A DNA stretch of 64,000 nucleotides from Minisyncoccota bacterium (GCA_041659205.1 JBAZYS010000001.1:123166-187165); one strand, 5' to 3'; positions 1-44,798 are shown, numbered from the stretch's first letter. Notes: generated by a model from the letters alone, not told the origin. Numbers and translations are program-made.

Positions 1-3000
1 CTCTCGCAATATTTTTTGTTGGTATTAGTGGAATTTTTTTATTTAGTAAAATTACAGAAGCTGCCGCTGCAACTTTCATTCAGTCATCCTGGGCAGGAGG
101 TATCACCGTAAATGTTGCTGCCGATCCTACTGATCAAACTGGATGGACAGAATATGATTCGGCAAATGGAGTTACAGCAGGAGCTACGGTTACTCTCGGT
201 CCAGTGACAAAAAGTTTTATTGACGGTTCTCCTATTACAGCAAATGGAAACCCACCAACTGGTGGGGGATTTTCAAGTGGATTATTCTCTTCTTCAAAAT
301 TTCACGGTGTAAATGGAGAGGGTGGCTGGGTAGGAGCCTTGAATGTGACACTTTTTTCTGGTACTAGTTATGCAGTCGGAGGTTCTCCAAAAAATATTGC
401 TTTTGATTCTATAAATAATGCAGTCTGGGTTACAAATAATAGTAACGGAACGGTAATTAAACTTAATGCAAGTACTGGTTTTCCTATTGGTGTTTATCCG
501 GTTGGTGCTAATCCTCAAGGTATTGCTTTCGATTCTATAAATAATGCAATCTGGGTGACAAATACTTCGGCTAGCACGATTACAAAGGTAGATGGAATAA
601 CAGGCAACATTATAGGGACATATGTAGCTGGAACTACACCTTACGATATTGTATTTGATGCTCCTCAAAATGCAGTTTGGGTTACAGATACTACTGATAA
701 TACAGTAAGTGAATTTGACACAACAACAGGTAATCTTGTTGACACTATACCTGTTGGAAATAGTCCTCAAAGTATTACATACGATAGTACTCTTGGGGAT
801 GAATCTGTTTGGATTGCAAATTACTGGGATAACACTGTCAGCAAAATTAATACTACGACGGGAGTTGTTAGTGGAACTTATGCAGTCGGTGGAAATCCTA
901 CTGATATTGTTTTTGATGTAACAAATAGTTCAGTTTGGGTTTCGAACTATACTGATAGTACAGTTACTCAATTAAATGAATCCAGTGGTGTTCCTATCGG
1001 AACTTACCCAGTTGGGACAAATCCTTCTGGTATTATTTTTGACGTTACCAATAACGCAGTTTGGGTAACAAATAATACTAGTGGTACAGTTACAAAGTTA
1101 GATGCTACAAATGGTAACACTATTATAGGGACTTATTCTACAGGTACAAATCCTGAAGGTGTAGTTTTTGATATTACTAGTAATAGTGTTTGGATAGTAA
1201 ACAATAATAATGGAGTTGGTGATGGTAGTGTTACGAAATTAAATGCTTCAAATGGTAATAACATTGGTGGTCCTTTTGTAACTGGAGCTGGACCTTACGG
1301 TATAGCTTATGATGCGCCGCATAATGCAATTTGGGTAGCAAATAGTGGGGCAAATACTATTAGTGAATATGATGCTTCGACAAGTGTAATTATTGGTAGC
1401 CCTATTGCTACAGGAAATGGTCCTCAAGGTGTTGCATATGACGCAACTAATCATGCAGTGTGGACCCCAAATATAACTGATGGTACTGTTACTAAGATAG
1501 ATACTAATACCAGTACTGTTGTTGGAACGTATGCAGTTGGCACCCTTACTTCTTTTCCTCAAGATATAACTTTTGATGTTACTCAAAATGCTATTTGGGT
1601 TTCAAACCATGGAGATAATGCTGTTGTTAAACTTGATGCTGCGACTGGTGCACCAGTAGGTGCTCCAATTGCAGTAGGTAATTACCCTCAGGGTGTTGCT
1701 TTTGATGTTACCAACAATGCAATTTGGGTAGCAAACAATAGTGATGATACGATTACAAAAGTTGATGCAGCAACGGGTGTTGTTATTGGTAGTCCAATTG
1801 CCGTGGACGTTGGTCCTATGCGTGTTGCTTATGATATTACTCAAAATGCCGTTTGGGTAACAAGCACTAATTCAGTTAGTAAAATTGATGCTACTACAGG
1901 TGTCTTAATTGGTTCCCCAATTTCAGTTGCATTTGCTCCTAGGGGTATCGCATTTGATATTACTAATAATACAATCTTGGTTACAAACAATGGAAATACA
2001 GTTACTAGAATTAATGCTGCCACGGGTGTGATTATGGGGGGACTAATTCCTATGTCTAGTACTTATCCTGAAAATATTGCTTACGATATTACTAATAATG
2101 TTTTTTGGGTGACGGATGTAAGTGGTAATAAAATTTTTAAAATTAAACCCATCGATGGTTCTTATATAACATCTGCTGGGTCTTTTGTTTCTGCTGTTAT
2201 AGATTTTACTGAAGTATCACAATTTACGACATTCGCATTTACAGCAACAACACCCATAAATACAGGAATTACAATGGACGTGCGTGGTTCTGTAGATAAT
2301 ATTACCTGGACATCATGGATAACAAATGTTTCAAATGGAGGAAGCATAAGTGCTCTTACGGGTAATAGATATATTCAATATCGTGCAAATCTTACTTCTA
2401 CAGATGCAACAGTTACCCCTACTCTTAGTGATGTAAGTGTTAGTTCTGCTTCTTGGACATTTATAGACGATGAGCCGACGAGCACCACTCCAGTACCTCC
2501 TTCGGCAAGTGGGGGTGATTTTACTAATGGTACTAATTCTGGCACATCAGCTTCTTGGTATGTTTATCTTACTCCTGGAATAGCCGCTGGAACAAGGACT
2601 GATTATTCTTTAGCTTCAGGGTTTAATCCGATAGGTGTTGCTTTTGATAATGTTACAAATTCAGTATGGGTAGCAATGCATGGTAGTGGTTGGATTGAAA
2701 AAATGGATATTAATACAGGTACAAAAGTTGATTATCCAATGACTGGACATTATTATCTTTCACCGTGGGCAATGGCTTTTGATAATGTTACTAACTCTAT
2801 TTGGGTGACAGAATATTACGAAGGACAAGTTAGTAAAGTAAATGTAAATGATGGCACCTTTGTGGATTATAATGTCGGAGCATTTCCTCAGGCTATTGCG
2901 TTTGATAATGTTACAAATTCAGTATGGGTTACGAATTCTTCTGACAACACAGTGAGTAAGGTAGATATTACTGCAGGTACTAAAGTGGATTATGCAACTG

Positions 3001-4589
3001 GCACTGAACCAATAGGTGTGGCTTTTGATAATTTTACTAATTCTGTGTGGGTGGCAAATTTTGCAGGTGGTGCTGGTAACACTGTAAGTAAAATAAATAT
3101 TAATACTGGTACCAAGGTTGATTACAGTACAGGGACAGGGCCATATGGTGTAGCTTTTGATAATGTTACTAACTCAGTATGGGTGACAAATATGGTTGAT
3201 AATACAGTTACTAAAATTAATGCCACTACTGGTGCCACCATAGGTACTTATGGTGTTGGCTCAGATCCACGTGCAGCTACTTTTGATAATGTTACCAATT
3301 CTATTTGGGTGACAAGCTACAATGCGAATAGTGTAAATAAGATAAACGTAAATACGGGCACAAGCGTTAGCTATGGTGTAGGATGGCAACCTTGGGGTAT
3401 TGCTTTTGATAATGTTACTAACTCAGTATGGGTAGGAAATTATGATAGTTTTGCTAATCATCCGCCAACAAGAATAAGTAAAGTAAAAATTATGAATGAT
3501 CCTTATGTCTCACCTGGTACTTTTACTTCGGCTGTTATAGATTTTGGTGCAGCTGCATTTTTGAATACAATTTCTTTTAGTACAGCTTTGCCCGCGAATA
3601 CAAATATTACTATAGACTTACGAGCTGGTAATGTGGCAGTTCCTGATGGATCTTGGACAGATTGGGCGATAAATACAGATGTTGCAAATGGGGGAGACAT
3701 TAGTGCACTTTCTAGTAATCGATATATTCAGTATCGTGCAAATCTTACGACTACGGATGGAATAAATACACCGGATCTTTATAGTGTTACTTTTAATTAT
3801 TATTTTTCATTACAAAGACAATTAAGTGGTGATCTTACTTCTTCTGTGTATGATGCAGGTTCTGCTGACAATACAATTACGAAGATAGCTTGGAGTGCCA
3901 CGGGAACTTCACCTTCAGAGATTGTTAAATTTCAAGTACGTTCATCTCCTGATGGTGCGACATGGTCCAACTGGTGTGGACCGAGCGTTACTTGCGATGG
4001 TACAGATTATTTCCTTGATGTAAATAATGATGTTGCCCTTGATTCTGGTCATCCACTTAGAAATGGTGCTGATGATGAATTTTTTCAGTATAAAGTATTT
4101 CTTGCTGGAGATGGAAGTGCGACGCCCACTCTCACCTCAGTAACTATTTCATATGATGTAACTCCTGTTACACCTCCTCCCGGCGGAGGTGGAGGCTCAT
4201 TTGCAGTTGGCCCTACTTCAGTTTCTGGAGCGGCTACTTCTGTCACTGTTACTAATGCAATCTTAAATGGAACAGTAAATGCAAATGGGGCAACTGATAC
4301 AATGCGTTATTTTGAGTGGGGAACAGCTCCTGATGTATTGAGCAATCAGACACCACACATAGCCCATACGAATATTCCATCTGGAACCACTGCCACACTT
4401 TCTTGGTCAAACATAAATGGAGCGACATTATGCAAAATAAATGGAGGACAATATGTAGACAAGGTCGTATCGTGTACGGGGGGAAGTCTTATCACAGATA
4501 CACTTACAACAAATACAACTTACATTCTTATGGCTTCAAATGGTTATGGAGGAGAAGTGACGAAGAGTTTGAGTGTAATTGTGCCGTAG
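1..4589 (+). CDS. Giant secreted YVTN-family beta-propeller repeat protein, 5'-partial (the frame is open from nt 3 and the start lies upstream of the window). It has about 20 ~40-aa repeats of the form GIAFD..NNAVWVTN....TV(T/S)K(L/I)(D/N)A.TG..IGTY.VG.NP, two copies of a ~100-aa domain ending NRYIQYRANL, and a C-terminal FN3/Ig-like module with an (R)YFEWGT motif.
   Basis: The ORF at 204..4589 extends in-frame to nt 3, and the upstream translation LAIFFVGISGIFLFSKITEAAAATFIQSSWAGGIT aligns with the N-terminus of the paralog at 9350. The repeat consensus matches the YVTN 40-residue beta-propeller repeat. This is family-level recognition from sequence, with no database search. Confidence 0.75.
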   Translation, partial: LAIFFVGISGIFLFSKITEAAAATFIQSSWAGGITVNVAADPTDQTGWTEYDSANGVTAGATVTLGPVTKSFIDGSPITANGNPPTGGGFSSGLFSSSKFHGVNGEGGWVGALNVTLFSGTSYAVGGSPKNIAFDSINNAVWVTNNSNGTVIKLNASTGFPIGVYPVGANPQGIAFDSINNAIWVTNTSASTITKVDGITGNIIGTYVAGTTPYDIVFDAPQNAVWVTDTTDNTVSEFDTTTGNLVDTIPVGNSPQSITYDSTLGDESVWIANYWDNTVSKINTTTGVVSGTYAVGGNPTDIVFDVTNSSVWVSNYTDSTVTQLNESSGVPIGTYPVGTNPSGIIFDVTNNAVWVTNNTSGTVTKLDATNGNTIIGTYSTGTNPEGVVFDITSNSVWIVNNNNGVGDGSVTKLNASNGNNIGGPFVTGAGPYGIAYDAPHNAIWVANSGANTISEYDASTSVIIGSPIATGNGPQGVAYDATNHAVWTPNITDGTVTKIDTNTSTVVGTYAVGTLTSFPQDITFDVTQNAIWVSNHGDNAVVKLDAATGAPVGAPIAVGNYPQGVAFDVTNNAIWVANNSDDTITKVDAATGVVIGSPIAVDVGPMRVAYDITQNAVWVTSTNSVSKIDATTGVLIGSPISVAFAPRGIAFDITNNTILVTNNGNTVTRINAATGVIMGGLIPMSSTYPENIAYDITNNVFWVTDVSGNKIFKIKPIDGSYITSAGSFVSAVIDFTEVSQFTTFAFTATTPINTGITMDVRGSVDNITWTSWITNVSNGGSISALTGNRYIQYRANLTSTDATVTPTLSDVSVSSASWTFIDDEPTSTTPVPPSASGGDFTNGTNSGTSASWYVYLTPGIAAGTRTDYSLASGFNPIGVAFDNVTNSVWVAMHGSGWIEKMDINTGTKVDYPMTGHYYLSPWAMAFDNVTNSIWVTEYYEGQVSKVNVNDGTFVDYNVGAFPQAIAFDNVTNSVWVTNSSDNTVSKVDITAGTKVDYATGTEPIGVAFDNFTNSVWVANFAGGAGNTVSKININTGTKVDYSTGTGPYGVAFDNVTNSVWVTNMVDNTVTKINATTGATIGTYGVGSDPRAATFDNVTNSIWVTSYNANSVNKINVNTGTSVSYGVGWQPWGIAFDNVTNSVWVGNYDSFANHPPTRISKVKIMNDPYVSPGTFTSAVIDFGAAAFLNTISFSTALPANTNITIDLRAGNVAVPDGSWTDWAINTDVANGGDISALSSNRYIQYRANLTTTDGINTPDLYSVTFNYYFSLQRQLSGDLTSSVYDAGSADNTITKIAWSATGTSPSEIVKFQVRSSPDGATWSNWCGPSVTCDGTDYFLDVNNDVALDSGHPLRNGADDEFFQYKVFLAGDGSATPTLTSVTISYDVTPVTPPPGGGGGSFAVGPTSVSGAATSVTVTNAILNGTVNANGATDTMRYFEWGTAPDVLSNQTPHIAHTNIPSGTTATLSWSNINGATLCKINGGQYVDKVVSCTGGSLITDTLTTNTTYILMASNGYGGEVTKSLSVIVP

Positions 4590-4643
4590 TTATTTTTAAT
4601 TATTATTAACATTTATATTATTATCAGTAGGGAAATTAAATAC

Positions 4644-7600
4644 ATGAAATACAAATCTTATAAAATTATTATTCTTGCAGTTTTAGTAATAGGTTTTCTC
4701 TTTATGAGTAGAGCTTTTGTATCTGCAGTGGCGCTTGATTTTAGGGCTGAAAGTAATCCAACGTTAACATCAGGCCCCATCTATGCTGGAAGTTCAGCTT
4801 CTTTTAAAGCTCAGATTGGAGGAACATATTCTACTGCATCTCTTGTTCCTTCTTTTTGGAGATTGGCTTGGACAACTAATTCAGCAGATTATAACAATAC
4901 TCCTCAGCCAGGCAATTCTTGGACAATTACTCAATATTCTTCTAGTCCATCAACTTCCAACCTAGATAGTAGTGTTGCTAGTTCTAGATATATTTATTCT
5001 TCCCCGATTCCTTTTAGTCAGCCAAATTCAAGTGGGTATAGATATCTTATTATGGGCTGTGTAAATGGAACTTCTCCTGTAAATCCATATTCTAATGCAA
5101 ACGGACCTGATTATACTTCGTATGTAGGTCCTATGAATGGTGTCACCAACGGGGAAACAAATACGCTCGATAATTGTACTTTTTGGACGAGTTTAAATGT
5201 AAATGCTGGTTGTACTAACGGAGCGAATAATCCTCCTTCTTGTAATGCTTGTACTGCACCATTAACTTGGGATGGAAATAATTGTACTCTCCCTGTTATG
5301 TCTGGCACACTTACTCCTGCAAATTCTACTTGTACAATTGCATCAGGGGCAAGTAAGTGTAGTAGAGTTTTAACATGGACAACAGCAAATCCCGTTGGGA
5401 CATCTGCTGTCACAAACGGAAGTGGAGCAACTCCTAATCCTAGTGCAAGTAGTAATAATACTTTTCAAACTTTTTTTATTCCATACAACAATGGCACACC
5501 CATTACTTTTTATCTTTATAATAATGCAGTGAACCTTGCAACAGCAACCGTCACTCCAGTTTGTGTAAATGGTACTGCCTGGGATGGAAGTAAATGCCAG
5601 ACTATTCCCACTCCTGTAAATGGAGTCTGTGGTGCTACTCATTATGTATGTACCGTGGGAACAAGTGCCAGTAATGTAAGTAGTACTTATGCTTGGAATT
5701 GGACCTGTAATGGTTCTGGTGGTGGATTAGATGCATTCTGTAAAGAAAACAAACCCGCAATGTCTGGCACACTTACTCCTGCAACTTCTAGTTGTACGAT
5801 TGCCCTTGGTGCAAGTACTTGTATAAAACTTTTAACTTGGACGACCACAAATCCTGTTGGTACTTCTGCTGTCACTAACGGAAATGGTGCAACTCCAAAT
5901 CCTAGCCCAAGTGCAAATAATAGTTCGAAAACTTTTACCATTCCTTATGGTAGTGGAGCAGGTACAACATTTTATCTTTATAACAATGCGGTGAACCTTG
6001 CGACAGCCAATGTGACACCGAGCTGTGCCACGGGAAGCACCTGGAACGGAAGTATTTGTATTTCTAATACTTGTGACAATGGAGCAAGTAATTATCCTAC
6101 TTGTACTAATTGTCCAGCATCACAAGTTTTGAATAATGCTACAGCAACTTGTGTTCCTCCACTTTCTATTTCATTAGGTTCAACAAATTATTCTGCAACA
6201 TTACCTAATCATACAATTTCAGGAATTTATACTCTCACAAATGGGACATCTTCTAATACGACTTGTAGGTTATTAGATGGTTCTGGTACACCACTTACTA
6301 CATACGCACCATGCACGGGAAGTATTTCAGTTGTTGCCCCATCTTCTGCTGGTTCTTATGGGTATTCTATCCAAGCATTTAAAGCTTCAACCGGAGAAAC
6401 AAAAGTTAGTAATGCATTCACTGTGAATATTATTATTCCTTTTGCAACTCCACCTGCACCAGTAATAACTATTTCTGCAAATCCTGCAGTAATTACATCC
6501 GGGGGAACATCAACGATTAGCTGGTCAGCTCTTAACGTCACTCAAGGTTGTACAGCATCTGGAGCTTGGTCTGGCGCGCAACAAGAAATAGGGACAATTG
6601 GAACGGGAGCACTAACTACGGGGACATATACATACACTCTTACATGTACTGGTGGCCTTGGTAGAAGTGGAAGTGGAAGTGCGACAGTTACCGTAAATCC
6701 TGTAGTAGTTACTAGTTGTACAAATGGTACAAATAATCCTCCTGCATGTAATATTTGCACAGGAGCATTTTCCTGGAATGGTTCCACTTGTGTTGCTAAC
6801 CCTGTAATTGGAACTTTTTCTTCCACTCTTAATACTGGAAATCTTCCTGGTTCATTTTCAGAAATAATTTCTAATCTTTCAAAAAATACTACCTATTATT
6901 TCCGCGCAGTAGCACAAAATTCACAAGGGACATCAAATGGGCAGACTCTTAGTTTTACAACTCTAGATACTCCACCTGCATTAGTTCTTCCATCTGTTAC
7001 TACAGAGAGTGCGACAGCTGTTGCAAATACGTCTGCAACATTTAATGGAAATGTAGACCCTAATGGCACAACTGATACAACTCGATATTTTGAATGGGGA
7101 ACATCTGCATTGAGTTTAAGTAATCAAACGACACACACCAGTCAAGGTCCCACCCTTGGTACTTTCTCGGATACTGTTTCTAGTTTTGCAAAAGATACTA
7201 CCTATTATTTCCGCGCAGTAGCTACAAATTCTAATGGAACAGTATATGGCCAGGTATCTTCTTTTAAAACTACAAATGTTATTGATTTAGAGATACCACT
7301 CGCTCCAGTTGTAACTATTTCTGCTTCACCTAAAACTGTTGTAGTTGATGGAACATCAGTAATTACATATACAGTTAAAAATGTAACTCAAGGTTGTGTT
7401 AAAACAGGAGATTGGTCAGGAGCAACTGAAGGCTCTGGAACATATACAACAGATGCACTTCCTGCTGGTTTATATACATATACTCTCACGTGTACGGGCG
7501 GCCTTGGGATAACAGGAAGTGGAAGTGTGGCAGTGACATCAAGAGAAAAAGTTCCAAATGTGCTTGCTCCTACTGTTACTACGAGTAGTGTGGGATCTAT

Positions 7601-9350
7601 CACTAAGACAGAGGCAGCACTGAGTGGATATTTAAATCCAAATGGTCTTACTGATATGGTTCGTTATTTTGAATGGGGAACATCTGCATCAAGTTTAAGT
7701 AATCAAACTACTCACTATAATCATGGTGCGACAGCAGACGGCTTTTCCGAAAATATTTCTGGTCTTACATCTAATACTCCATATTATTTCCGCGCGGTAG
7801 CAGAGAATTCAAGTGGTACAATTTATGGAACTGTTCTTCCGTTTATTACAGATTCAGATGTTGTAGATTTACAAAATCCTCCTGCTCCCGTAGTTGCAAT
7901 TGCAGCTTCACCAACATTGGTTGCTGCGGGTGATACTTCAGAGATTACTTGGACAACTGCAAACGTTACTCAGGGTTGTGTTTCTTCAGGTGGTTGGTCT
8001 GGAACGAGAGCAGATTCAGGTACACATACTACAATTCCTCTTTCTTCCGGAGAACATACATTTACTCTTACATGTACGGGTGGTCAAAATAGAACTGGAA
8101 GTGCAAGTGTCTTAGTAACAGCAGAATCTCTTGTTGGTCCTGGTGGTACGGGTGGTGGAGGCTCTGGTGGGGGGAATGGAGGTTCTGATACGAACAGCGG
8201 CGGTGGAGGTTTTGGTACTGGAGGAAGTGCGAGTGGTGGTGCAGGTAGTACAGGCACTAGCGGAGGTACAGGTGGGGGAAATACTATTACGGAAGCGATT
8301 GGGAATACATTGTCAGAAATTCTTGCTCCTGTTATTACGCCTGAAGTTAAGAAAATAATTACTACAACTAGAAAAAATATTGCTGAGTATTCAGACACAC
8401 CAGCTGGGGCTGTTACCACGACGACCGTCACCGCTCTCGGTGCAGGAGGAGGAAGTGCCATTGCGCTTGTTTCCGCAGGTGGAACCGTTACTTCTCTAGC
8501 AGATATTCCACTGCTTGCATTACGCTTATGGAGCATGTTGCTCGTGTCTCTGGGACTAAGAAAGAAACGTGCACCTTGGGGAACAGTTTATGATAGTGTC
8601 ACAAAACAACCACTTGATCCAGTGTATGTAATTTTAAATGATCAAGCAGGAAAAGAAATTAAAACAGCAATCACTGACCTAGATGGGCGTTTCGGTTTTC
8701 TTGTACCACCTGGTTCTTACCAAATCACAACGAAGAAAACAAATTACCAAGCTCCATCAACCAAACTTGCTGGTAAAAACAGTGATGAGCTTTATGATAA
8801 TTTGTATTTCGGTGGGGAAGTTGTTCTAGGAGAGGATGCAGTTATCACAAAAAATATTCCGATGGACCCACTTGCTTTCGACTGGAACGAATTTGCAAAA
8901 CGTGATAAAAAACTCATGACTTTCTATTCTAAAAATACTCGCATTCTTTCCATTGTTCTGAACGCTCTCTTTTACGTTGGGCTATTGTCAGTTATTATTC
9001 TTTTTATTGCAAAACCAGATAAGCTTAACCTTGCAATACTTATAGTTTACGGTATTCTTCTTGTTCTTCATTTACTAGGATTTAAACCTAAAACCTTCGG
9101 TACAATTATTGACACTGCAACAAAAGAGCCTCTATCCTTCGCTGTTGTTCGTGTCTTTAGAAAAGGTTTTCCTCAAGAACTCTTCCATCGTGTGGCAGAT
9201 AAATATGGACACTATTATTGTTTACTCGCGAAAGGTGAATATTATGTCACTATCGACAAAAAGAATGTAGATGAATCTTATACCACTATCTTTACTTCAG
9301 AATTAATTAATGCAAAAAAAGGAATTATTAACGAGAACTTCACTGTGTAA
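4644..9350 (+). CDS. Large multi-module membrane/surface protein of 1568 aa. It has an N-terminal signal/TM segment, Cys-rich repeats, three ~95-aa modules ending TYTYTLTCTGG, three FN3-like modules with a RYFEWGTS motif, a Gly-rich linker, several TM helices, and two carboxypeptidase-regulatory-like (CarboxypepD_reg-type) beta-sandwich domains.
   Basis: The ORF has internal triplicated modules (PPAPVITISA...TCTGGLG x3; TDTTRYFEWGTSALSLSNQTTH...YYFRAVA x3). A low-complexity GPGGTGGGGSGGGNGG stretch lies at about 8140-8290. Hydrophobic helices lie at about 8490-8560 and 8950-9090. WGTVYDSVTKQPLDPVYVILNDQAGKEIKTAITDLDGRFGF matches the CarboxypepD_reg pattern. The stop overlaps the next start (TAATG). 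Confidence 0.7.
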   Translation: MKYKSYKIIILAVLVIGFLFMSRAFVSAVALDFRAESNPTLTSGPIYAGSSASFKAQIGGTYSTASLVPSFWRLAWTTNSADYNNTPQPGNSWTITQYSSSPSTSNLDSSVASSRYIYSSPIPFSQPNSSGYRYLIMGCVNGTSPVNPYSNANGPDYTSYVGPMNGVTNGETNTLDNCTFWTSLNVNAGCTNGANNPPSCNACTAPLTWDGNNCTLPVMSGTLTPANSTCTIASGASKCSRVLTWTTANPVGTSAVTNGSGATPNPSASSNNTFQTFFIPYNNGTPITFYLYNNAVNLATATVTPVCVNGTAWDGSKCQTIPTPVNGVCGATHYVCTVGTSASNVSSTYAWNWTCNGSGGGLDAFCKENKPAMSGTLTPATSSCTIALGASTCIKLLTWTTTNPVGTSAVTNGNGATPNPSPSANNSSKTFTIPYGSGAGTTFYLYNNAVNLATANVTPSCATGSTWNGSICISNTCDNGASNYPTCTNCPASQVLNNATATCVPPLSISLGSTNYSATLPNHTISGIYTLTNGTSSNTTCRLLDGSGTPLTTYAPCTGSISVVAPSSAGSYGYSIQAFKASTGETKVSNAFTVNIIIPFATPPAPVITISANPAVITSGGTSTISWSALNVTQGCTASGAWSGAQQEIGTIGTGALTTGTYTYTLTCTGGLGRSGSGSATVTVNPVVVTSCTNGTNNPPACNICTGAFSWNGSTCVANPVIGTFSSTLNTGNLPGSFSEIISNLSKNTTYYFRAVAQNSQGTSNGQTLSFTTLDTPPALVLPSVTTESATAVANTSATFNGNVDPNGTTDTTRYFEWGTSALSLSNQTTHTSQGPTLGTFSDTVSSFAKDTTYYFRAVATNSNGTVYGQVSSFKTTNVIDLEIPLAPVVTISASPKTVVVDGTSVITYTVKNVTQGCVKTGDWSGATEGSGTYTTDALPAGLYTYTLTCTGGLGITGSGSVAVTSREKVPNVLAPTVTTSSVGSITKTEAALSGYLNPNGLTDMVRYFEWGTSASSLSNQTTHYNHGATADGFSENISGLTSNTPYYFRAVAENSSGTIYGTVLPFITDSDVVDLQNPPAPVVAIAASPTLVAAGDTSEITWTTANVTQGCVSSGGWSGTRADSGTHTTIPLSSGEHTFTLTCTGGQNRTGSASVLVTAESLVGPGGTGGGGSGGGNGGSDTNSGGGGFGTGGSASGGAGSTGTSGGTGGGNTITEAIGNTLSEILAPVITPEVKKIITTTRKNIAEYSDTPAGAVTTTTVTALGAGGGSAIALVSAGGTVTSLADIPLLALRLWSMLLVSLGLRKKRAPWGTVYDSVTKQPLDPVYVILNDQAGKEIKTAITDLDGRFGFLVPPGSYQITTKKTNYQAPSTKLAGKNSDELYDNLYFGGEVVLGEDAVITKNIPMDPLAFDWNEFAKRDKKLMTFYSKNTRILSIVLNALFYVGLLSVIILFIAKPDKLNLAILIVYGILLVLHLLGFKPKTFGTIIDTATKEPLSFAVVRVFRKGFPQELFHRVADKYGHYYCLLAKGEYYVTIDKKNVDESYTTIFTSELINAKKGIINENFTV

Positions 9351-12300
9351 TGAAAAGAGAAAATAAAAAAAAGGGAGGGCATGCTTCAATAAAATTTATT
9401 CTTACAACTTGTGCAATAATCTTTGTTGGTATGAGTGGACTTTTTCTCTATGGAAAATTTGTTCAAGCTGCACCTTTTACATTCGTTCAATCTTCATGGG
9501 CGGGTGGAATTACTGCAAATACAGCAGTTCATGCAAGTAACCAAACAGGGTGGACGGAATATTCTCTAAAGAATGATATGACTGCTGGAGGTACCTTGAC
9601 TCTTCCTGTTTCTAGTAAAAATTTTACGGATGATGGAGTGGTTACTACTATTGGAGGATTTGAGCCAATAATTAATGGATTTTTTAATGGGATAGATTCC
9701 GGTACAACTGTTTACGAAAATTTTGATAAGTCTGCTTATGTTGGGCTAGGCACCCCACTTTATTCTGTAGGTAACAATCCACAAGGCGTTGCTTTTGATG
9801 TCACAAATAATGCAACATGGGTGACAAATAGTGCTAGTAATACAGTTACAAAATTAGATGCTGCAACTGGGGCAGTTATTGGTACTTATGCTGTTGGAAA
9901 TAGTCCACGGGGTGTTGTTTTTGATATTACAAATAATGCAGTTTGGATAGCTAATAGTTTGGATAGTACAGTTACAAAATTAAACGCTGCAACTGGAGCA
10001 GTTATTGGTACATATTCGGCAGGGAATCCTCGAGGTATTGCTTTTGATGTTACAAACAATGCAGTGTGGGTGGTTGATGGACTAAATTTAGTTACAAAAT
10101 TAGATGCTACTACTGGTGCCACAATAGGTTCTTATGCTGTTGGTACAAATCCTTGGGAAGTAACGTTTGATATCACAAATAATGCAGTATGGGTAACAAA
10201 TTCTGATGATAATACAGTTTCAAAATTAGATGCTGTATCTGGTGCTAATATAGGAACTTATTCCACCGGGGGAATTTATCCGCTTGGTGTTGTTTTTGAT
10301 ATTACAAATAATGCAACATGGGTGACTAATGCCAACGATAATACTCTTACTAAATTAAATGCTTCTACTGGAGCTATTGTTGGTACTTATTCAACAGGAA
10401 TTAATCCAGGAGGTATTGATTATGATATTACAAGTAATGTTATTTGGGTTAGAGTTAGTGAAAAAAATAGTGTTGATAAATATAATGCTACTACTGGCGT
10501 TCGTATAAGTAGTTATACATTGAGCAGCAATAGGGGGTCTGCTTATCAAGGTGTTGCGTTTGATATTACAAATAATGCTGTATGGTCCGATATTTTTTTT
10601 GATAATAAAGTTAGTAAAATAGATGCAACTAGTTTGAGATATGTTAGTACTGGAATATTTACTGCTGATGTTGTTGATTATGGTGAATCTACGGTATTTA
10701 ACACTTTGTCATACGACAAATCAACACCCGTAGATACTACTTTAACAATAGATGTAAGAGCAGGAAATGTGGCAGTACCTGATGGTACTTGGACAGCATG
10801 GAGTACTAATATTACAAATGGGGGAGATATTAGCGTAATGAGCGGTAATCAATATATTCAATATCGGGCAAATTTTGCGACGACAAACACTGCAATCTCA
10901 CCCGTCCTTTATGATATAACTATTAGTTCTAATTATTGGACATCTGTAGATGATGGTACTCCCTCTACTCAAGGAGGATCTCTTCCTTCTGGTGGATTTT
11001 TTGCTGGAGGTACTAATTTAAACACGATAGTTTCTGGTTCTGGGGCTGGTGCGAGTGTTGTGCTTGGTGAGGCACCAAGTGTTCCGTATGGTGTGGGTAG
11101 TAATCCAGGTGGTATTGCTTTTGATGTTACAAATAATGCTTTATGGGTATTAAGAGGAGGTGTGAATATTGTAACAAAATTAAATGCAACCACTGGTGCA
11201 GTAATAGGTAATTATTCTTTGGTTGATTCCCCCGGGGGCATTGCTTTTGATGTTACAAATAATGCTATATGGGTAACAAATCAACTTATTAATTCTGTTA
11301 CAAAAATAAATGCAGCGACTGGTGCAATTATCGGTACATATAGTGCTGGTATTAGTGCAGGCCCGAATTATATTACATATGATATTACAAACAACGCAGT
11401 TTGGATTATCAATGGGGATAGCACTGTCTCAAAATTAAATGCTACTACTGGTGCACCAATTGGGGGTTTTATTATGATGGGCTCATTTGGAGTAGATACT
11501 GTTTACGATGTTACAAATAATGTGGTTTGGGTTGTTACTAATAATTCCACAACCTTAACAAAGATTAATGCTACCACTGGTGCATTAATTGGTAGTCCAA
11601 TTTCTGTTGGATTTACTATTGGTGGAATTGCTTTTGATGTTACTAATAACCTTTTGTGGGTTGAAAATTATTTCGCTGGAAGTGTTTATAGATATAATGC
11701 AACTACTAATATTGCTGTCGGGTCTCCTGTGCCAATTGGTGTTCATCCGCAAGGAATAGCATTCGATGTTAGTAATAATATGATCTGGGCTTCAAATCGA
11801 GGAAGTAATAATGTTTTTAAAATTGATGCTTCTACTGGTGTATTGGTGGGGATGTCTATTGCAGTAGGAATTTCACCAATGAATGTTGCTTTTGATATTA
11901 CAAATAATTCAGTTTGGGTGACAAACACTGGTGACACTACTGTCAGTAAAATAAATGCCATACCTGTTTACGCAGCTTCCGGTACCTTCACCTCCTCCAT
12001 CATCGATCTTGGAGCTCTTTCTACACTAAATACACTTTCATATAATGTTACGACTCCAATAAATACTAATATTACAATGGACATAAGAGGATCAGTAGAT
12101 AATATTACTTGGGGTGCTTGGGTTACGGGAGTGTCAAATGGAGGATCAGTAGCAGCCCTATCAGGGAACAGATATATACAATATAAAGCAAACTTAAGCA
12201 CTACAGATACAGCAGTAACTCCATCATTGGACGATGTTACTATCAGTTACTCCCAATATCAATCAAGTGGATCTCTTACATCTTCAGTTTTTGATTCAGC

Positions 12301-13030
12301 ATCAGCAGGAAATTTAATTGATAAACTAGCTTGGATAGATAGTGGAACAAGCGTAACAGAGACATTGAGTTTCCAAATTCGTTCTTCTCCTGATGGTTTT
12401 AGTTGGTCAGATTGGTGTGGCCCAACAGTTTTGTGTGATGGCACTAGTAATTTTCTTTCTGTAGACAATGGTGTAGCTTTTGTTTCAGGTCATCCACTTA
12501 AAACAGGAGGAAATGATAGATATTTTCAATATAAAGCCTTCCTTTTTTCAGGTGGATATTTAACGCCAACTCTTTCTTCGGTAACTATTACCTATGATGT
12601 CACTTCAGGTTCACCACCACCTCCATCCGGCGGCGGTTCATTTGCAAGTAGTCCTTCAGCTCTTACTGTGGCAGCATCATCTGTGGCAAACGTTAATGCA
12701 ATATTAAATGGAACAGTAAATTCAAACGGTATTGCTGGTACGACACGTTGGTTTGAGTGGGGGACATCTGCCCTTGGATTAATTAATCAAACGATCCATA
12801 TGCCTCACACAGATACTCCTTCTGGTACAACAGCGACATTATCATGGTCTGGTGTAAAAGGAGCGACAGAATGTAAATTAAATGGAGGACAATATGTAAA
12901 CAAGGTTGTGTCATGTGCGGGAGGAAGCATTACGACAGATGTTCTTACTGTAAATACAACTTATACCCTTACGGCTTCAAATGGGTTTGGACCGGATGTG
13001 ACGAAGAGTTTGAACGTGGTGTTACCCTAG
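9350..13030 (+). CDS. Giant secreted YVTN-family beta-propeller repeat protein, a paralog of the first gene. It has a signal/TM N-terminus, YVTN repeats, two NRYIQY(R/K)ANL domains and a C-terminal FN3-like module with RWFEWGT.
   Basis: It has the same architecture and repeat consensus as gene 1, and its N-terminal 35 aa are alignable to the upstream-extended frame of gene 1. Its ATG overlaps the previous stop, which suggests translational coupling. Confidence 0.75.
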   Translation: MKRENKKKGGHASIKFILTTCAIIFVGMSGLFLYGKFVQAAPFTFVQSSWAGGITANTAVHASNQTGWTEYSLKNDMTAGGTLTLPVSSKNFTDDGVVTTIGGFEPIINGFFNGIDSGTTVYENFDKSAYVGLGTPLYSVGNNPQGVAFDVTNNATWVTNSASNTVTKLDAATGAVIGTYAVGNSPRGVVFDITNNAVWIANSLDSTVTKLNAATGAVIGTYSAGNPRGIAFDVTNNAVWVVDGLNLVTKLDATTGATIGSYAVGTNPWEVTFDITNNAVWVTNSDDNTVSKLDAVSGANIGTYSTGGIYPLGVVFDITNNATWVTNANDNTLTKLNASTGAIVGTYSTGINPGGIDYDITSNVIWVRVSEKNSVDKYNATTGVRISSYTLSSNRGSAYQGVAFDITNNAVWSDIFFDNKVSKIDATSLRYVSTGIFTADVVDYGESTVFNTLSYDKSTPVDTTLTIDVRAGNVAVPDGTWTAWSTNITNGGDISVMSGNQYIQYRANFATTNTAISPVLYDITISSNYWTSVDDGTPSTQGGSLPSGGFFAGGTNLNTIVSGSGAGASVVLGEAPSVPYGVGSNPGGIAFDVTNNALWVLRGGVNIVTKLNATTGAVIGNYSLVDSPGGIAFDVTNNAIWVTNQLINSVTKINAATGAIIGTYSAGISAGPNYITYDITNNAVWIINGDSTVSKLNATTGAPIGGFIMMGSFGVDTVYDVTNNVVWVVTNNSTTLTKINATTGALIGSPISVGFTIGGIAFDVTNNLLWVENYFAGSVYRYNATTNIAVGSPVPIGVHPQGIAFDVSNNMIWASNRGSNNVFKIDASTGVLVGMSIAVGISPMNVAFDITNNSVWVTNTGDTTVSKINAIPVYAASGTFTSSIIDLGALSTLNTLSYNVTTPINTNITMDIRGSVDNITWGAWVTGVSNGGSVAALSGNRYIQYKANLSTTDTAVTPSLDDVTISYSQYQSSGSLTSSVFDSASAGNLIDKLAWIDSGTSVTETLSFQIRSSPDGFSWSDWCGPTVLCDGTSNFLSVDNGVAFVSGHPLKTGGNDRYFQYKAFLFSGGYLTPTLSSVTITYDVTSGSPPPPSGGGSFASSPSALTVAASSVANVNAILNGTVNSNGIAGTTRWFEWGTSALGLINQTIHMPHTDTPSGTTATLSWSGVKGATECKLNGGQYVNKVVSCAGGSITTDVLTVNTTYTLTASNGFGPDVTKSLNVVLP

Positions 13031-13129
13031 AAATAGAGATAATTTAATTTCCTAGTTGGAAGTTAGATTTTCTTTGCATTTTTTTGACAAATTGTTATAC
13101 TTGTCGTTACTTAAATACAAACAAAAAAA

Positions 13130-14521
13130 ATGAAAAAAATAAAAAAACTTGGTAAAAATTGGAAAAAGTTTTGGAAGCTCGGAGCGGATGAATTCAACAC
13201 GCAGTTTTTCGGCGTGAACAAAGATGGTGAGCTCACTGCAACCGAAGGTCACCATATATATAATTTGAGCGACATGGCTCATAAGTATGGCACACCCCTA
13301 CAAGTAATATTTCCTTTTATTATTGAAGACAGACTTAAGGACCTTTTGGGATATTTTCAAGCCTATATGAAAATTTATGGGTATAAAGGTAAATTCTTTT
13401 ACCACTATCCAATGAAAGTAAATCAAAATAAAGAATTTATTCTTCCGATTTTATCTGAGGGAGCGAACCTTGAAGTAACTTCTGCCAACGAACTCTGGAT
13501 AGTAAAAAATCTCTGGGAAAGAGAGAAGTTTAATAGTAAAATTCGGGTATTCTGTAATGGTCCTAAAACTGATCAATATCTTGATTTGATTGAAGAATTG
13601 CGTGCAAAGGGGATGAGTATTGTTCCTATCATCGAGAGTTTAGATGAAGTGGATAGAATTTCTAAGTATAAAGGAGATGTCGGAGTGCGGGTGGATTTAA
13701 ATATTAAAGCAGATACACATTGGGATAAAAAGTTTGATCGTTTTGGGCTTTCTGAAAATGATGCACTTGATTTAAGCAAAATAAAAAATTTAAAGATATT
13801 ACATTATCACCTCGGTTCTCAAATAAAAACTCAAAAAAGTATTTTGGACGGAGTAAAACATGCATTTAGTATTTATGTTCAACTTCAAAAAACACATCCA
13901 TCACTCGACACGCTCGACATTGGTGGTGGTTTTGGTGTGCCTTATGAAAAGAAGAAGTTCTACACTGCCAAGGGTGTCTCTAGTAAAATCATTAAAGTAT
14001 TAAAAAGTTTGTCCGATAAAGCAGGAATTAAACATCCAAACTTGGCTGTGGAGTGGGGTCAATATATTGCTGCACCTGCACAAATTACTATGTATAAAGT
14101 TCTTTCAAAAAAGGCTATTCCAAAAGCAAATGCAAAGGCTTGGTATATTATAGATGGTAGTTTTATGAATGATTTAAAGGATACTTGGGCTATTCATCAA
14201 AAATGGCATGTTATACCAGCAAACAATATGCATAGTGTCCTGAAGACTGTATGGCTCGCAGGGAGCACTTGTGACTCAGATGATAAATATACTGCAGGGG
14301 GGAACTATATTATGATGCCCAAGCTTCATGACAATAATGATGCTCAATTAATAGCAGTTCTTGATACTGGAGCATACCAAGATGGGCTCTCTTCTCACCA
14401 TTGTCTACTTGCTGCACCACTTAAAATTGTTGCTCAAGATGGTATGGTTAAAGTTGCTCGAAAGCGCGAAAATGCAGATTCCATCGGTAAGCTTTTTGGT
14501 TGGAATGGAGATAATAAATAA
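13130..14521 (+). CDS. PLP-dependent decarboxylase of the Orn/DAP/Arg decarboxylase family (alanine-racemase-like fold); most similar in motif to biosynthetic arginine decarboxylase.
   Basis: The motifs HYHLGSQ, DIGGGFGVPY and C-terminal AGSTCDSDD are typical of fold-type III decarboxylases (the SpeA-like H.HLGSQ and CDSxD). The assignment rests on motifs alone. Confidence 0.6.
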   Translation: MKKIKKLGKNWKKFWKLGADEFNTQFFGVNKDGELTATEGHHIYNLSDMAHKYGTPLQVIFPFIIEDRLKDLLGYFQAYMKIYGYKGKFFYHYPMKVNQNKEFILPILSEGANLEVTSANELWIVKNLWEREKFNSKIRVFCNGPKTDQYLDLIEELRAKGMSIVPIIESLDEVDRISKYKGDVGVRVDLNIKADTHWDKKFDRFGLSENDALDLSKIKNLKILHYHLGSQIKTQKSILDGVKHAFSIYVQLQKTHPSLDTLDIGGGFGVPYEKKKFYTAKGVSSKIIKVLKSLSDKAGIKHPNLAVEWGQYIAAPAQITMYKVLSKKAIPKANAKAWYIIDGSFMNDLKDTWAIHQKWHVIPANNMHSVLKTVWLAGSTCDSDDKYTAGGNYIMMPKLHDNNDAQLIAVLDTGAYQDGLSSHHCLLAAPLKIVAQDGMVKVARKRENADSIGKLFGWNGDNK

Positions 14522-24191: not shown

Positions 24192-24529
24192 AAACTCTTA
24201 TTGTAAAAAAACCCTGGGGTCAGTTTGATCAGTTTACTCATAATGAATTGACAACTGTTAAAATCCTTTCGGTTAATCAAGGTAGCTCTTTGAGCTTACA
24301 ACAACATAACCATAGAACAGAATTTTGGCGGGTTATTTCAGGGCATCCTCAGGTAACCGTCGGAAATGATACAATAATTGCAAATCCCGGGGATGAGTTT
24401 ATAATTGAAGTATTACAATTACATAGATTAGAGGCGCGAGAGGATGACGTCCAAGTCCTAGAAATCGCTTTTGGTGATTTTGATGAAAGTGATATTATAA
24501 GGATAAAGGATAAATATGGCCGCGCCTAA
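24188..24529 (+). CDS. Cupin-domain protein of the mannose-6-phosphate isomerase type II (ManC C-terminal domain-like) class.
   Basis: KPWGQFDQF...LSLQQHNHRTEFWRVISG matches the EKPWG...LSLQ.H.HR.E.W..V.G signature of PMI-type cupins. Confidence 0.65.
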   Translation: MKTLIVKKPWGQFDQFTHNELTTVKILSVNQGSSLSLQQHNHRTEFWRVISGHPQVTVGNDTIIANPGDEFIIEVLQLHRLEAREDDVQVLEIAFGDFDESDIIRIKDKYGRA

Positions 24530-25739
24530 AAAAAAGAAAACAATACAGAAAGTAGTTAAAAAAACTATCAAAAAGGTTATTGTCAAAAAAAAGACAATAA
24601 TAAAAAAATCTGCCGCAAAAATAAAAAAACTTACTAAAAAGACTACTCGTAAAACAAAAAGTAAAACTAATCGTACCCCGAAGACCTTAAAACTCTCCAG
24701 ATCATTTAATAATCCAATCATCGGGCCTAGATCTTATTCTTGGGAATCTCAAGCTGTATTTAATCCAGCTGTTGTATCTTTGGGTGGGAGGATACATCTT
24801 TTTTACAGAGCGCTTGGTGATGATGGAGTTTCACGTATTGGTTATGCTTCTAGTAAAGACGGAATAAATTTTGATGACAGACTTCTCTATCCAGTATATT
24901 TTCTGAAGAATGTGGAGGAGATAAAAGAGCACTGGCCCTTTACTTCTCCATCACGTCCTGTTTATGACACGATGCTTTATGCTTCAGGTGGTGGGTGGGG
25001 TGGCTGTGAAGACCCTCGAGCTGTGGTTATGGATGGTTACGTTTATATGACCTTTAATGTTTTTAGTGGGTGGAATACTATGCGCGTAGCGGTGACTTCA
25101 ATTAAGGAGGAAGATTTACTTGATAAAAAATGGGACTGGAAAAATTTTGCATATCTTACTCGTCCCGGTGATAGACAGAAAAATTGGGTTTTATTTCCTG
25201 AAAAAATAAATGGTAAGTTTGCGATTTTTCATAATTTAGATAAAGGTGATAGTTCAAAAGTTGCAGTAGCTTATGTAAATAAACTTGATTATTCAGAGAC
25301 ACCAGATATCAAAGATGCACCCGATCCCCAAGTATTGCCAGACCATGTGGTCGCTTGGCATAAACGTACCCGTAGCGCTGCTTCACCACCAATAAAAACC
25401 AAGGAAGGCTGGCTTCTTTTATATCATGCGATGGATAAAGAAGATGGTAATCGTTACAAACTAGGAGCATTATTGCTTGATTTAAAAGACCCTGAAAAAG
25501 TTCTTTATAGAGCAGCTCATCCTATTTTTGAACCAGATGCCTGGTACGAAAATGATTGGAAGCCAGGAATTATTTATGCAAGTGGGGCAATCGTGATAAA
25601 AGATAAACTTTTTGTTTATTATGGTGGTGGAGATAAGTATATTGGGGTAGCTTCTGTTTCACTTAATGATTTGATAGATAGTATGAAAAAGAAAGGTTCG
25701 ATAAAATTAGAAAAAAATAAATCACTGAAGTTTGAATAA
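24516..25739 (+). CDS. GH130-family (DUF377) glycoside phosphorylase-like protein with an unusual ~60-aa Lys-rich N-terminal extension.
   Basis: GGGWGGCEDPRAVVMDGYVYMTF contains the GH130 CEDPR motif. The N-terminal MAAPKKKKTIQKVVKKTIKKVIVKKKTIIKKSAAKIKKLTKK has no alternative ATG before the catalytic domain. Confidence 0.75.
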   Translation: MAAPKKKKTIQKVVKKTIKKVIVKKKTIIKKSAAKIKKLTKKTTRKTKSKTNRTPKTLKLSRSFNNPIIGPRSYSWESQAVFNPAVVSLGGRIHLFYRALGDDGVSRIGYASSKDGINFDDRLLYPVYFLKNVEEIKEHWPFTSPSRPVYDTMLYASGGGWGGCEDPRAVVMDGYVYMTFNVFSGWNTMRVAVTSIKEEDLLDKKWDWKNFAYLTRPGDRQKNWVLFPEKINGKFAIFHNLDKGDSSKVAVAYVNKLDYSETPDIKDAPDPQVLPDHVVAWHKRTRSAASPPIKTKEGWLLLYHAMDKEDGNRYKLGALLLDLKDPEKVLYRAAHPIFEPDAWYENDWKPGIIYASGAIVIKDKLFVYYGGGDKYIGVASVSLNDLIDSMKKKGSIKLEKNKSLKFE

Positions 25740-25744
25740 TATCT

Positions 25745-34982: not shown

Positions 34983-35046
34983 GGTACGGATTTTTTGAAG
35001 CTTAAAAAATCCTGAAATTCTCGGCTCGTCAGCCTCGAAACCCCGC
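34983..35046 (+). repeat. Left copy of a 64-bp inverted-repeat element. It contains an internal palindrome, ggattttttgaagcttaaaaaatcc.
   Basis: It is the reverse complement of 44735..44798 with 63/64 identity. It lies in the divergent lepB/pth promoter region. Confidence 0.85.
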
Positions 35047-35087
35047 AAAAACTATACTTTTAAGATTTTTTATTAAATGCGATAGTG

Positions 35088-44722: not shown

Positions 44723-44734
44723 AATAAGCTTTTT

Positions 44735-44798
44735 GAGGGGTTTCGAGGCTGACGAGCCGAGAATTTCAGGATTTTTTAAGCTTCAAAAAATCCGTACC
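44735..44798 (-). repeat. Right copy of the 64-bp inverted-repeat element, between convergent tktC and the PfkB kinase.
   Basis: It is the reverse complement of 34983..35046 with a single mismatch. The internal palindrome ggattttttaagcttcaaaaaatcc may also terminate both convergent genes. Confidence 0.85.

Follow-up and report, generated by a model that had tools for sequence, protein, structure and literature searches.

Three giant genes at the start of the window

We analysed a 64,000-nt stretch of DNA (JBAZYS010000001.1, positions 123166-187165, assembly GCA_041659205.1; hereafter the window) from a metagenome-assembled genome (MAG) of an uncultured ultrasmall bacterium of Candidatus Paceibacterota, a group that belongs to the Candidate Phyla Radiation (CPR), and focused on the three giant genes at its beginning, named g1, g2 and g3. 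The original prediction had placed three co-oriented giant genes at 1-13030, and the open reading frames (ORFs) on the + strand confirmed this. They were listed as 204(GTG)..4589, 4644..9350 and 9350..13030; the frame of g1 is open to window base 1. Together they account for 20.4% of the window (13030/64000), matching the predicted share of about 20%. The genes are as follows.

1..4589, + strand: g1, 'head', cut at its 5' end by the window edge; equals P0002 / WC847_00530, 1565 aa; 45% identical to g3
4644..9350, + strand: g2, 'stalk-anchor'; equals P0121 / WC847_00535, 1568 aa, with 35 Cys (2.2%)
9350..13030, + strand: g3, 'head'; equals P0001 / WC847_00540, 1226 aa

Translation of g1 from base 3 starts with LAIFFVGISGIFLFSKITEAAAATFIQSSWAGG, which matches the start of g3 (CAIIFVGMSGLFLYGKFVQAAPFTFVQSSWAGG), and the 1565-aa database copy places 37 codons upstream of window base 1; the contig measures 239 kb. 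The cluster runs on 5' of the window, where a further paralog, P0003 (WC847_00520, 1801 aa), lies two locus tags before g1; locus tag 00525 represents one further gene between them.

A stop/start overlap had been proposed where g2 sits between g1 and g3. It was present between g2 and g3, which share one base (TAATG at 9348-9352), but not between g1 and g2, which are separated by an AT-rich gap of 54 nt with a Shine-Dalgarno-like AGGGA 5' of the g2 ATG. A promoter/terminator scan of the cluster found no terminator-like hairpin at either junction, and its sole promoter-like site lay downstream of g3 (13073-13101). The promoter and terminator counts equalled the shuffle background; the scan is informative only for the lack of hairpins at the junctions. 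The tight packing and the hairpin-free junctions support the predicted operon-like arrangement of g1, g2 and g3.

g1 and g3 are multi-propeller proteins

BLASTP aligned g1 with g3 at 45% identity over 1139 aa (E = 0), and an alignment of their N-terminal parts gave 39% identity over 963 columns, which bore out the proposal that the two are paralogs with similar N-termini. Both proteins follow the same order: a signal peptide, an N-domain of about 100 aa opening with xFxQSSWxGG, propellers, NRYIQ domains, a DRYFQ domain and a tail. An NRYIQ domain comes after each propeller region, and the DRYFQ domain after the last NRYIQ domain. Their features are listed below; a slash marks the putative cleavage site, HMM stands for hidden Markov model, AF2 for AlphaFold2, Ig for immunoglobulin and Fn3 for fibronectin type III.

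3..62, + strand: g1, end of the signal-peptide hydrophobic region and putative cleavage site (...SKITEA/AAATF); hydrophobic segment, family-conserved small residues at -3/-1
369..2147, + strand: g1 propellers 1 and 2, about 14 YVTN/NHL blades, subtype A (FDVTNNAVWV); TIGR02276, NHL and Vgb_lyase matches, blade motifs, DNA repeats D2-D10
2169..2459, + strand: g1 NRYIQYRANL predicted beta-sandwich domain 1; custom HMM E 1e-33, motif
2604..3506, + strand: g1 propeller 3, 7 blades, subtype B (FDNVTNSVWV); identity matrix
3507..4166, + strand: g1 NRYIQYRANL domain 2 and a divergent third copy (FFQYKVFL); HMM 1.4e-41 and 4.7e-54
4209..4586, + strand: g1 C-terminal tail, N-terminal half of a FEWGT Fn3-like module plus a Cys-pair Ig-like domain; alignment A3, z-scores
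9350..9469, + strand: g3 putative signal peptide (...LYGKFVQA/APFTF); sequence, hydrophobicity, family motif
9755..10633, + strand: g3 propeller 1, 7 blades, subtype A; 1L0Q match, blade motifs, identity matrix
10643..10945, + strand: g3 NQYIQYRANF predicted beta-sandwich domain 1; HMM 5.2e-38
11081..11965, + strand: g3 propeller 2, 7 blades, subtype A; blade motifs, identity matrix
11972..12607, + strand: g3 NRYIQYKANL domain 2 and DRYFQYKAFL domain; tandem beta-sandwich pair, AF2-modelled
12641..13027, + strand: g3 C-terminal tail, half FEWGT module plus a Cys-pair Ig-like domain; A3, z-scores, low AF2 confidence

About 20 relatives known from CPR metagenomes keep the xFxQSSWxGG start, and in each of them it comes immediately after a small-x-Ala site; in about 15 relatives the site just before the motif is of A-x-A type. 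The small-x-Ala site fits the signal peptidase I rule, so the signal peptides of g1 and g3 are probably cleaved. The hydrophobic N-terminal segments of g1 and g3 are 19-22 residues long, and the composition is rich in T, S, G and N and poor in K, R and E, as is typical of envelope proteins. These features, with a Sec-type signal peptide and an A-x-A type cleavage motif predicted in each of the three products, support the assignment of g1, g2 and g3 as secreted or surface proteins. The re-analysis of signal peptides and transmembrane (TM) helices called for by the original prediction thus found signal peptides in all three proteins and TM helices in g2, but no membrane or wall anchor in g1 or g3, which also have no LPXTG or other C-terminal sorting motif.

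The YVTN repeats proposed for the paralogs passed the TIGR02276 check, with 32.1 bits for g1 and 30.0 for g3 (cutoff 27.85). A 47-nt blade core recurs in 32 copies with a period of 123-129 nt, and blade motifs number about 21 in g1 and about 14 in g3, both multiples of 7. We therefore predict three 7-bladed YVTN/NHL propellers in g1 (A, A, then B) and two in g3 (A, A). The best match among solved structures was the surface-layer protein of Methanosarcina mazei, 1L0Q (E 1.4e-17 over a 300-aa span, g3 aa 140-439), followed by designed "Pizza" propellers and then YncE.

The 1L0Q match also favours another explanation, in which the propeller proteins self-assemble into an S-layer-like lattice covering the cell, as has been proposed for Methanosarcina YVTN/PKD surface-layer proteins. 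The envelope-type composition and the several other large surface proteins encoded nearby would fit such a coat. However, no SLH, lattice or wall-binding domain was found, there was no PKD hit in g1 or g3, and g2 gave only a sub-threshold K319L-like PKD match (19 bits vs 27). An essential coat should have orthologs in the related genome carrying locus L002 (94% identical flanking gene, see below), yet g1, g2 and g3 have no close full-length relative beyond their own paralogs, and multiple divergent paralogs suit adhesins better than a lattice. We regard the lattice explanation as quite improbable.

The propellers could instead be lyase- or lactonase-type domains (Vgb lyase, SMP-30 or YncE-like) of surface enzymes that act on extracellular substrates. 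With 112 bits, g1 exceeded the cutoff of 50 for PF24684 Vgb_lyase, though in five partial stretches, while g3 gave no match to this family; weak Lactonase and SGL-type matches were seen in g3 and in relatives. These matches are nevertheless scattered over the blades, the usual pattern when 6- and 7-bladed NHL/YVTN propellers resemble one another at the level of the repeat; g3 reached no enzyme-family cutoff, and NCBIfam equivalog scores were far below theirs (for YncE, 96 vs 400). An enzymatic role is, on this evidence, very improbable.

The motif NRYIQY[RK]AN occurs in two copies in each of g1 and g3, as had been claimed, and we found after the second copy a divergent third one, FFQYKVFL in g1 and DRYFQYKAFL in g3; the HMMs of the two domains hit each other. 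Structure prediction, suggested earlier for the NRYIQYRANL domain, was carried out with AF2 on g3 865-1226 using alignment A1 (17 sequences). The results showed a beta-sandwich, with a block-mean predicted local distance difference test (pLDDT) of 72-94 for the NRYIQ + DRYFQ pair, and the modelled sandwiches matched carbohydrate-binding or discoidin-type beta-sandwiches. The NRYIQYRANL domain (about 100 aa) is thus predicted to be a galactose-binding-like beta-sandwich. It had no Pfam F5_F8_type_C or carbohydrate-binding module (CBM) family hit, so by sequence it is not a member of CBM32 or discoidin, and neither the NRYIQ/DRYFQ sandwich nor the QSSWxGG N-domain has a dedicated Pfam or NCBIfam model among the libraries searched. 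Identity to the matched folds (CBM32, F5/8 type C, DDR1 DS-like, GOLD) was only 2-21%; given this and the lack of a Pfam match, binding-site residues cannot be transferred from CBM or discoidin domains to the NRYIQ domain.

The last 125 or so residues of g1 and g3 are chimeric. The first 58 or so, which hold the single FEWGT motif of each protein, align with the N-terminal half of the g2 FEWGT module (A3), while the last 70 or so resemble the first Cys-pair Ig-like module of g2 (z = 6.1). Compared with the second half of the Fn3-like module, the tail gave z = -0.3 to 2.2. These scores indicate that in g1 and g3 just half of the Fn3-like module seen in g2 is present around FEWGT, and that an Ig-like domain is attached to this half.

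Other relatives of g1 and g3 differ in their ends or surroundings. Several anchorless proteins of 1700-2100 aa (P0005, P0012-P0016, P0034 and P0063) have the same QSSWxGG start and NRYIQ/DRYFQ pair and end in a conserved motif of another kind at the C terminus, ...TIITPRQTESVLDIIVKNFEDTFKFLGAK, which could act as an alternative signal for retention. The fourth-best homolog of g3, P0004 (34% identity, 60% coverage), is encoded on a 143-kb contig (ENA ERZ1426827) next to a 2312-aa Baseplate_J + Kelch protein, with DnaB, ClpP and RecA-like genes and many small ORFs around it. This neighbourhood looks like a large phage, and propeller modules may be common to CPR surface proteins and phage tail proteins.

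g2 is a cysteine-rich membrane protein

The middle gene had been described as a Cys-rich multi-domain membrane protein, and this description held: g2 has 35 Cys, a predicted signal peptide and three C-terminal hydrophobic helices. From the N terminus it comprises a signal peptide, a domain of about 160 aa, Cys-rich modules, an Ig/Fn3 alternation, a Gly-rich spacer and a C-terminal module, as listed below.

4644..4727, + strand: g2 putative signal peptide, MKYKSYKIIILAVLVIGFLFMSRAFVSA/VALDF; sequence, hydrophobicity
4728..6797, + strand: g2 N-terminal head and Cys-rich modules; Cys positions, DNA repeats D13 and D20
6798..8123, + strand: g2 alternating Fn3-like (FEWGT...YYFRAVA) and Cys-pair Ig-like modules; motifs, DNA repeats D14 and D17-D19, A3
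8124..8318, + strand: g2 Gly-rich low-complexity spacer; sequence
8352..9347, + strand: g2 C-terminal anchor module; phmmer, C-terminal placement, AF2, transthyretin matches, PF13715, positive-inside counts
~8496-8558, + strand: TM1, part of the C-terminal module
8571-8918, + strand: transthyretin-like domain 1, part of the C-terminal module
8937-9092, + strand: TM2-TM3 hairpin, part of the C-terminal module
9111-9347, + strand: transthyretin-like domain 2, part of the C-terminal module

The ectodomain holds 34 of the 35 Cys. It includes small 4-Cys knots (aa 186-215 and 688-718) and two copies of a 3-Cys Ig-like module (aa 219-317 and 373-471), and three Cys-pair Ig-like modules interleave with the Fn3-like ones further on. 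The FEWGT module was said to be shared by all three genes and triplicated in g2. The motif was verified in g1 and g3, but the triplication is not exact: g2 has three YYFRAVA motifs (aa 751, 854 and 1047), whereas FEWGT itself occurs in exact form only twice (aa 816 and 1009), indicating that the first Fn3-like copy is truncated at its N terminus. The fn3 score of g2 itself was sub-threshold (FN3_DSCAM 18.3 bits vs 39), and homologs with the FEWGT...YYFRAVA module carry precomputed PF00041 or PF16656 hits. A sequence search of the PDB with g2 gave nothing meaningful. No full-length homolog of g2 was found among 5.8 billion proteins, where all other matches covered at most 35% of it through common modules.

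The C-terminal module of g2 belongs to a large anchor family

The last 344 residues of g2 served as the query of an exhaustive phmmer search. It matched 3815 cluster representatives at E <= 1e-3, of which 930 also passed E <= 1e-30; the proteins span 271-3040 aa, and nearly all matches reached the last residue. The module was C-terminal in the 153 proteins compared (median tail 0 residues), and 116 of 135 full-length members had an N-terminal hydrophobic segment. All taxon-named members were Paceibacterota, Pacebacteria, Nomurabacteria or "Patescibacteria group", and their usual annotation was "carboxypeptidase-like regulatory domain-containing protein". Single-linkage clustering put 98 of 144 ectodomains of anchor-bearing proteins into one large cluster, which probably arises through shared Ig, Fn3 and Gly-rich modules and is a poor measure of diversity.

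g2 aa 1237-1568 fits the family layout of a TM helix, a beta domain, a TM hairpin and a second beta domain (phmmer and custom HMM, E 6.9e-159), and its last 330 or so residues are 45-83% identical to other members (E down to 1e-188). Alignment A2 contains 50 invariant residues, which are densest after the first helix (WGxVYDSxTKQPxDP...TDxDGRxGF). The CarboxypepD_reg search proposed earlier was positive, with PF13715 at 34.9 bits (cutoff 32.2) in aa 1313-1380; homologs carry PF13715 and PF13620. These partial matches were the only ones, and within the libraries searched neither Pfam nor NCBIfam contains a dedicated model of the complete module. Full-text literature searches found no published description of the anchor, of the NRYIQ/DRYFQ sandwich, of the QSSWxGG N-domain or of the g1-g3 protein family.

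In the AF2 model of the anchor, a helix and a beta domain are followed by a helical hairpin and by a beta-sandwich that is well modelled. Foldseek matched the modelled sandwich to transthyretin and HIUase (E ~1e-3), in agreement with the PF13715 match. The mean Lys+Arg counts in A2 were 0.0 before TM1, 3.9 after TM1, 5.3 before TM2, 0.6 in the TM2-TM3 loop and 3.2 after TM3. Under the positive-inside rule, these counts suggest that the ectodomain lies outside and that both transthyretin-like domains would face the cytoplasm.

Heads and anchors are fused or split in relatives

We compared the three genes with relatives in which head and anchor lie on one polypeptide. P0003 has a signal, the N-domain, a B propeller, an NRYIQ domain, an A propeller, and NRLFQ and DRYFQ domains, and continues with Fn3 and two Cys-pair Ig modules; after a Gly/Ser-rich spacer comes an anchor that shares 83% identity with the g2 anchor. 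The comparison with related genomes that had been proposed was possible at the syntenic locus L002 of another Paceibacterota MAG. There, a single 1282-aa gene, P0007, lies directly 5' of a gene for a decarboxylase that is 94% identical to that of the window (13130-14521), and of a DUF192 gene. P0007 carries a head made of propeller B, NRYIQ and DRYFQ, then Fn3, Ig and a Gly-rich spacer, and lastly an anchor; its anchor is 82% identical to that of g2, and its head only 47-49% identical to g1, g3 and P0003. Read in order, g1 and g2 are collinear with P0007, except for the extra Cys-rich N-terminal part of g2.

The split arrangement also recurs elsewhere. At L011, gaps of 11 and 14 nt separate three genes, and every one of them has a signal peptide of its own; the products are an RCC1-propeller head that carries NRYIQ domains, an Fn3/Ig protein of 370 aa and an anchored protein of 1623 aa. 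At L013, with the same gyrA flank, a 747-aa NHL head overlaps a 1287-aa anchored protein by 11 nt. Within L011 391-4946 (ENA contig k141_1364133), the head stops within its DRYFQ domain (...NRYFQYRIFLGAPMPVSIPINPS), and the missing last strand (SSVTITYD) sits after the signal peptide of the next, 370-aa gene. This apparently split domain hints at strand complementation between secreted partners. A fused counterpart with an RCC1 propeller, NRYIQ domains and an anchor, P0266 (2344 aa, L012 10001-17035), is encoded between EF-G and EF-Tu in an otherwise conserved str/S10 ribosomal-protein region. We also considered a docking tail common to all split heads and rejected it: the Cys-pair tails of L011 and L013 resemble each other (z 47.7), while the g1/g3 tail gave only z 0.1-1.5 against them.

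A candidate surface-binding apparatus

The fused head-stalk-anchor proteins elsewhere, together with the recurring split pairs, suggest that g1 and g3 act with g2. We hold it to be somewhat probable that the cluster is co-transcribed and encodes parts of one modular cell-surface binding apparatus of Paceibacterota. g1 and g3 would be exported via Sec, with their signal peptides probably cleaved, and would serve as ligand-binding heads. g2 would also be exported and would be held in the membrane by its three-TM C-terminal module, from which it would project a disulfide-rich Ig-like/Fn3-like stalk. The anchorless heads would be displayed on the anchored g2 or act together with it, and their propellers and CBM-like sandwiches would bind to glycans or to structures on the surface of a host cell or of particles. 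Signal-peptide cleavage, membrane topology, the association of the heads with g2 and the ligand are all points that we infer.

Several observations weigh against such an apparatus. For the putative physical contact of g1 or g3 with g2, no recognisable docking domain was found. The g1/g3 tail had an AF2 block-mean pLDDT of only 25-41 and shows no detectable relationship to those of the split heads at L011 and L013. Cleavage was judged by eye, and an uncleaved signal-anchor would tether g1 and g3 unaided. The promoter/terminator scan was at background, which leaves gene spacing as the ground for co-transcription. The AF2 model of the anchor was mediocre (pLDDT 65, predicted template modelling score 0.35; TM1 ~50-56), and its topology is read from the positive-inside rule. 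Transthyretin-like and CarboxypepD_reg domains are usually extracytoplasmic, with which the cytoplasmic prediction sits oddly.

Some of these observations would suit g1, g2 and g3 as independent surface or secreted proteins, linked by the ancestry of their modules but not in function, with g1 and g3 soluble or tethered by uncleaved signal-anchors and their adjacency due to tandem duplication. Tandem paralogs often remain neighbours without interacting, the 19-22-residue N-termini of g1 and g3 could be TM anchors, the lack of a docking domain agrees with this, and many anchorless relatives of 1700-2100 aa have other C-termini. On the other hand, P0003, P0007 and P0266 share the N-terminal signal and yet are anchored at the C terminus, for which a cleaved signal peptide is the simplest account. 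Adjacency of head and anchor also recurs on unrelated contigs with other propellers (RCC1 at L011, NHL at L013), and at L011 one domain is divided over two genes. We consider independence of the three proteins a doubtful but serious possibility.

Diversification of the locus

The locus had been called actively diversifying, with cassettes shuffled between neighbouring genes. Module order and copy number do differ between paralogs and between genomes, with one fused gene in L002 and at least four genes in this genome. Subtype B is the third propeller in g1 and the first in P0003 and P0007. The subtype-B propellers are 46-48% identical to one another and 35-43% to subtype A, whose members are 40-51% identical mutually; propeller 3 of g1 is 47-48% identical to the first propellers of P0003 and P0007 and 38-42% to subtype-A propellers. 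The heads have diverged far more than the anchors or the flanking genes, at no more than 51% identity against 82-83% for the anchors.

At the DNA level, the best identity between cassette copies was 82% over 88 nt; a separate repeat analysis gave 60-75%. No repeat of at least 80% identity exceeded 98 nt anywhere in the window, and none tied 1-13030 to the remainder. A Pfam scan of the 51 window ORFs of at least 120 aa found no reverse transcriptase or recombinase, and there was no template repeat/variable repeat (TR/VR)-like pair or invertible repeat. Recent gene conversion and a diversity-generating retroelement (DGR) were rejected on the repeat identities. The low DNA identity and the lack of DGR or inversion machinery indicate that the shuffling is old and not demonstrably ongoing; the differences in order and copy number thus stood, and the word 'actively' did not. 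What these comparisons support is a past of duplication, shuffling and fission in which the heads evolved fast; they do not support a cassette mechanism that is active now.

A contingency locus, with ongoing cassette recombination or gene conversion giving antigenic or host-range variation, would be compatible with the other explanations considered here. The modules common to the paralogs in permuted order would agree with it, as would the rapidly diverging heads and the architecture that differs from L002 despite the 94% identical flanking gene. Against it stand the absence of near-identical DNA tracts, the failure to find a DGR reverse transcriptase, TR/VR pair, invertase or flanking inverted repeats, and the only other assembly of the locus, L001 (a 10-kb Logan contig), which is 100% identical. 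We judge ongoing variation of this kind unlikely.

A separate repeat lies outside the cluster. A stretch of about 65 nt, GGTACGGATTTTTTGAAGCTTAAAAAATCCTGAAATTCTCGGCTCGTCAGCCTCGAAACCCC, is identical and inverted at intergenic positions ~34983-35047 (+) and ~44734-44798 (-), within a 98-nt match of 91% identity; it had no Rfam hit, and its folding z was -0.2 against shuffles.

Neighbouring genes

The remaining window (GC 31-40% across the window) encodes ordinary genes of a small bacterial genome, including DNA polymerase III alpha, HisRS, enolase, LepA, pentose-phosphate enzymes and five tRNAs. A signal peptidase I gene is also present.

Four neighbouring regions touch on surface proteins or glycans. 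A 1112-aa propeller protein (27718-31056, +) has blades of Vgb_lyase/NHL/PD40/Kelch type and ends in PG_binding_1, which suggests that the genome also retains propeller proteins by wall binding. A 1676-aa protein (47373-52403, +) carries Peptidase_S74 (endosialidase chaperone) and resembles a phage tail fibre. Its gene shares blastn stretches of 72-79% identity with a 2005-aa gene directly 5' of P0007 (L002 3875-9892), so that both giant-gene families are adjacent in L002 and 35 kb apart here. Just 5' of the tail-fibre-like gene, a 481-aa protein (45852-47297, +) has Lamin Tail Domain and PKD matches. Two adjoining GH130 genes (24516-27676, +), of the beta-1,4-mannooligosaccharide phosphorylase family, point to mannoside use and may be relevant to the glycan ligand of the CBM-like domains.

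Comparison with known systems

The propellers of g1 and g3 share ancestry with those of archaeal YVTN surface-layer proteins and are like that of the M. mazei surface-layer protein 1L0Q, an extracellular envelope protein with a 7-bladed YVTN propeller of ~42-aa blades; the paper associated with this structure is reportedly that of Jing et al. 2002. In the archaeal protein the propeller is followed by PKD, whereas here it is followed by the predicted galactose-binding-like beta-sandwich. Unlike the archaeal protein, g1 and g3 are multi-propeller proteins and part of a head/stalk-anchor gene set.

The order of signal peptide, binding head, Ig-like stalk and C-terminal anchor is also like that of the MSCRAMM (microbial surface components recognizing adhesive matrix molecules) or Sdr adhesins such as SdrD, whose B repeats are of the CnaB / transthyretin-like type. 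The g2 anchor gave a weak SdrD_B match (22.4 bits, below cutoff), and an SdrD structure was among its Foldseek matches. In contrast to these adhesins, anchoring here would be integral through three TM helices, and head and anchor are on separate polypeptides; we found no LPxTG-like motif near any g1-g3 C-terminus and no sortase among the scanned window ORFs. Having neither LPXTG nor sortase, and no PKD, g1-g3 appear to be neither LPXTG adhesins nor YVTN/PKD surface-layer proteins. g2 has the same TM / beta / TM-TM / beta layout as the patescibacterial 'carboxypeptidase-like regulatory domain-containing protein'; ectodomains in this family vary widely, and that of g2 has no full-length counterpart.

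Significance

For most Patescibacteria (CPR bacteria) a life in attachment to other cells is assumed, and beyond type IV pili few of their attachment molecules are known. A set of giant surface-protein paralogs is what one would expect in a CPR genome; the new part is the split head/anchor layout together with the undescribed anchor family. The C-terminal module may be a Patescibacteria-specific device that displays interchangeable ectodomains and couples them to the cell interior, with anchorless heads plugging non-covalently into an anchored stalk, in some lineages by beta-strand complementation such as L011 suggests, as a modular adhesin system for CPR host attachment. This broader proposal is speculative, and we think it rather unlikely to hold. 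Under it, the link inside the cell could be to polar localisation, to signalling or to an assembly machine used in common, for instance.

The locus provides a concrete parts list, comprising propeller/CBM-like heads, a disulfide-rich stalk and a widespread undescribed membrane module of thousands of CPR surface proteins. The recurring fusion and fission of head and anchor would offer a genomic rule for pairing anchorless orphan giants with membrane partners. If the anchor domains are indeed cytoplasmic, the family may tie surface binding to intracellular events.

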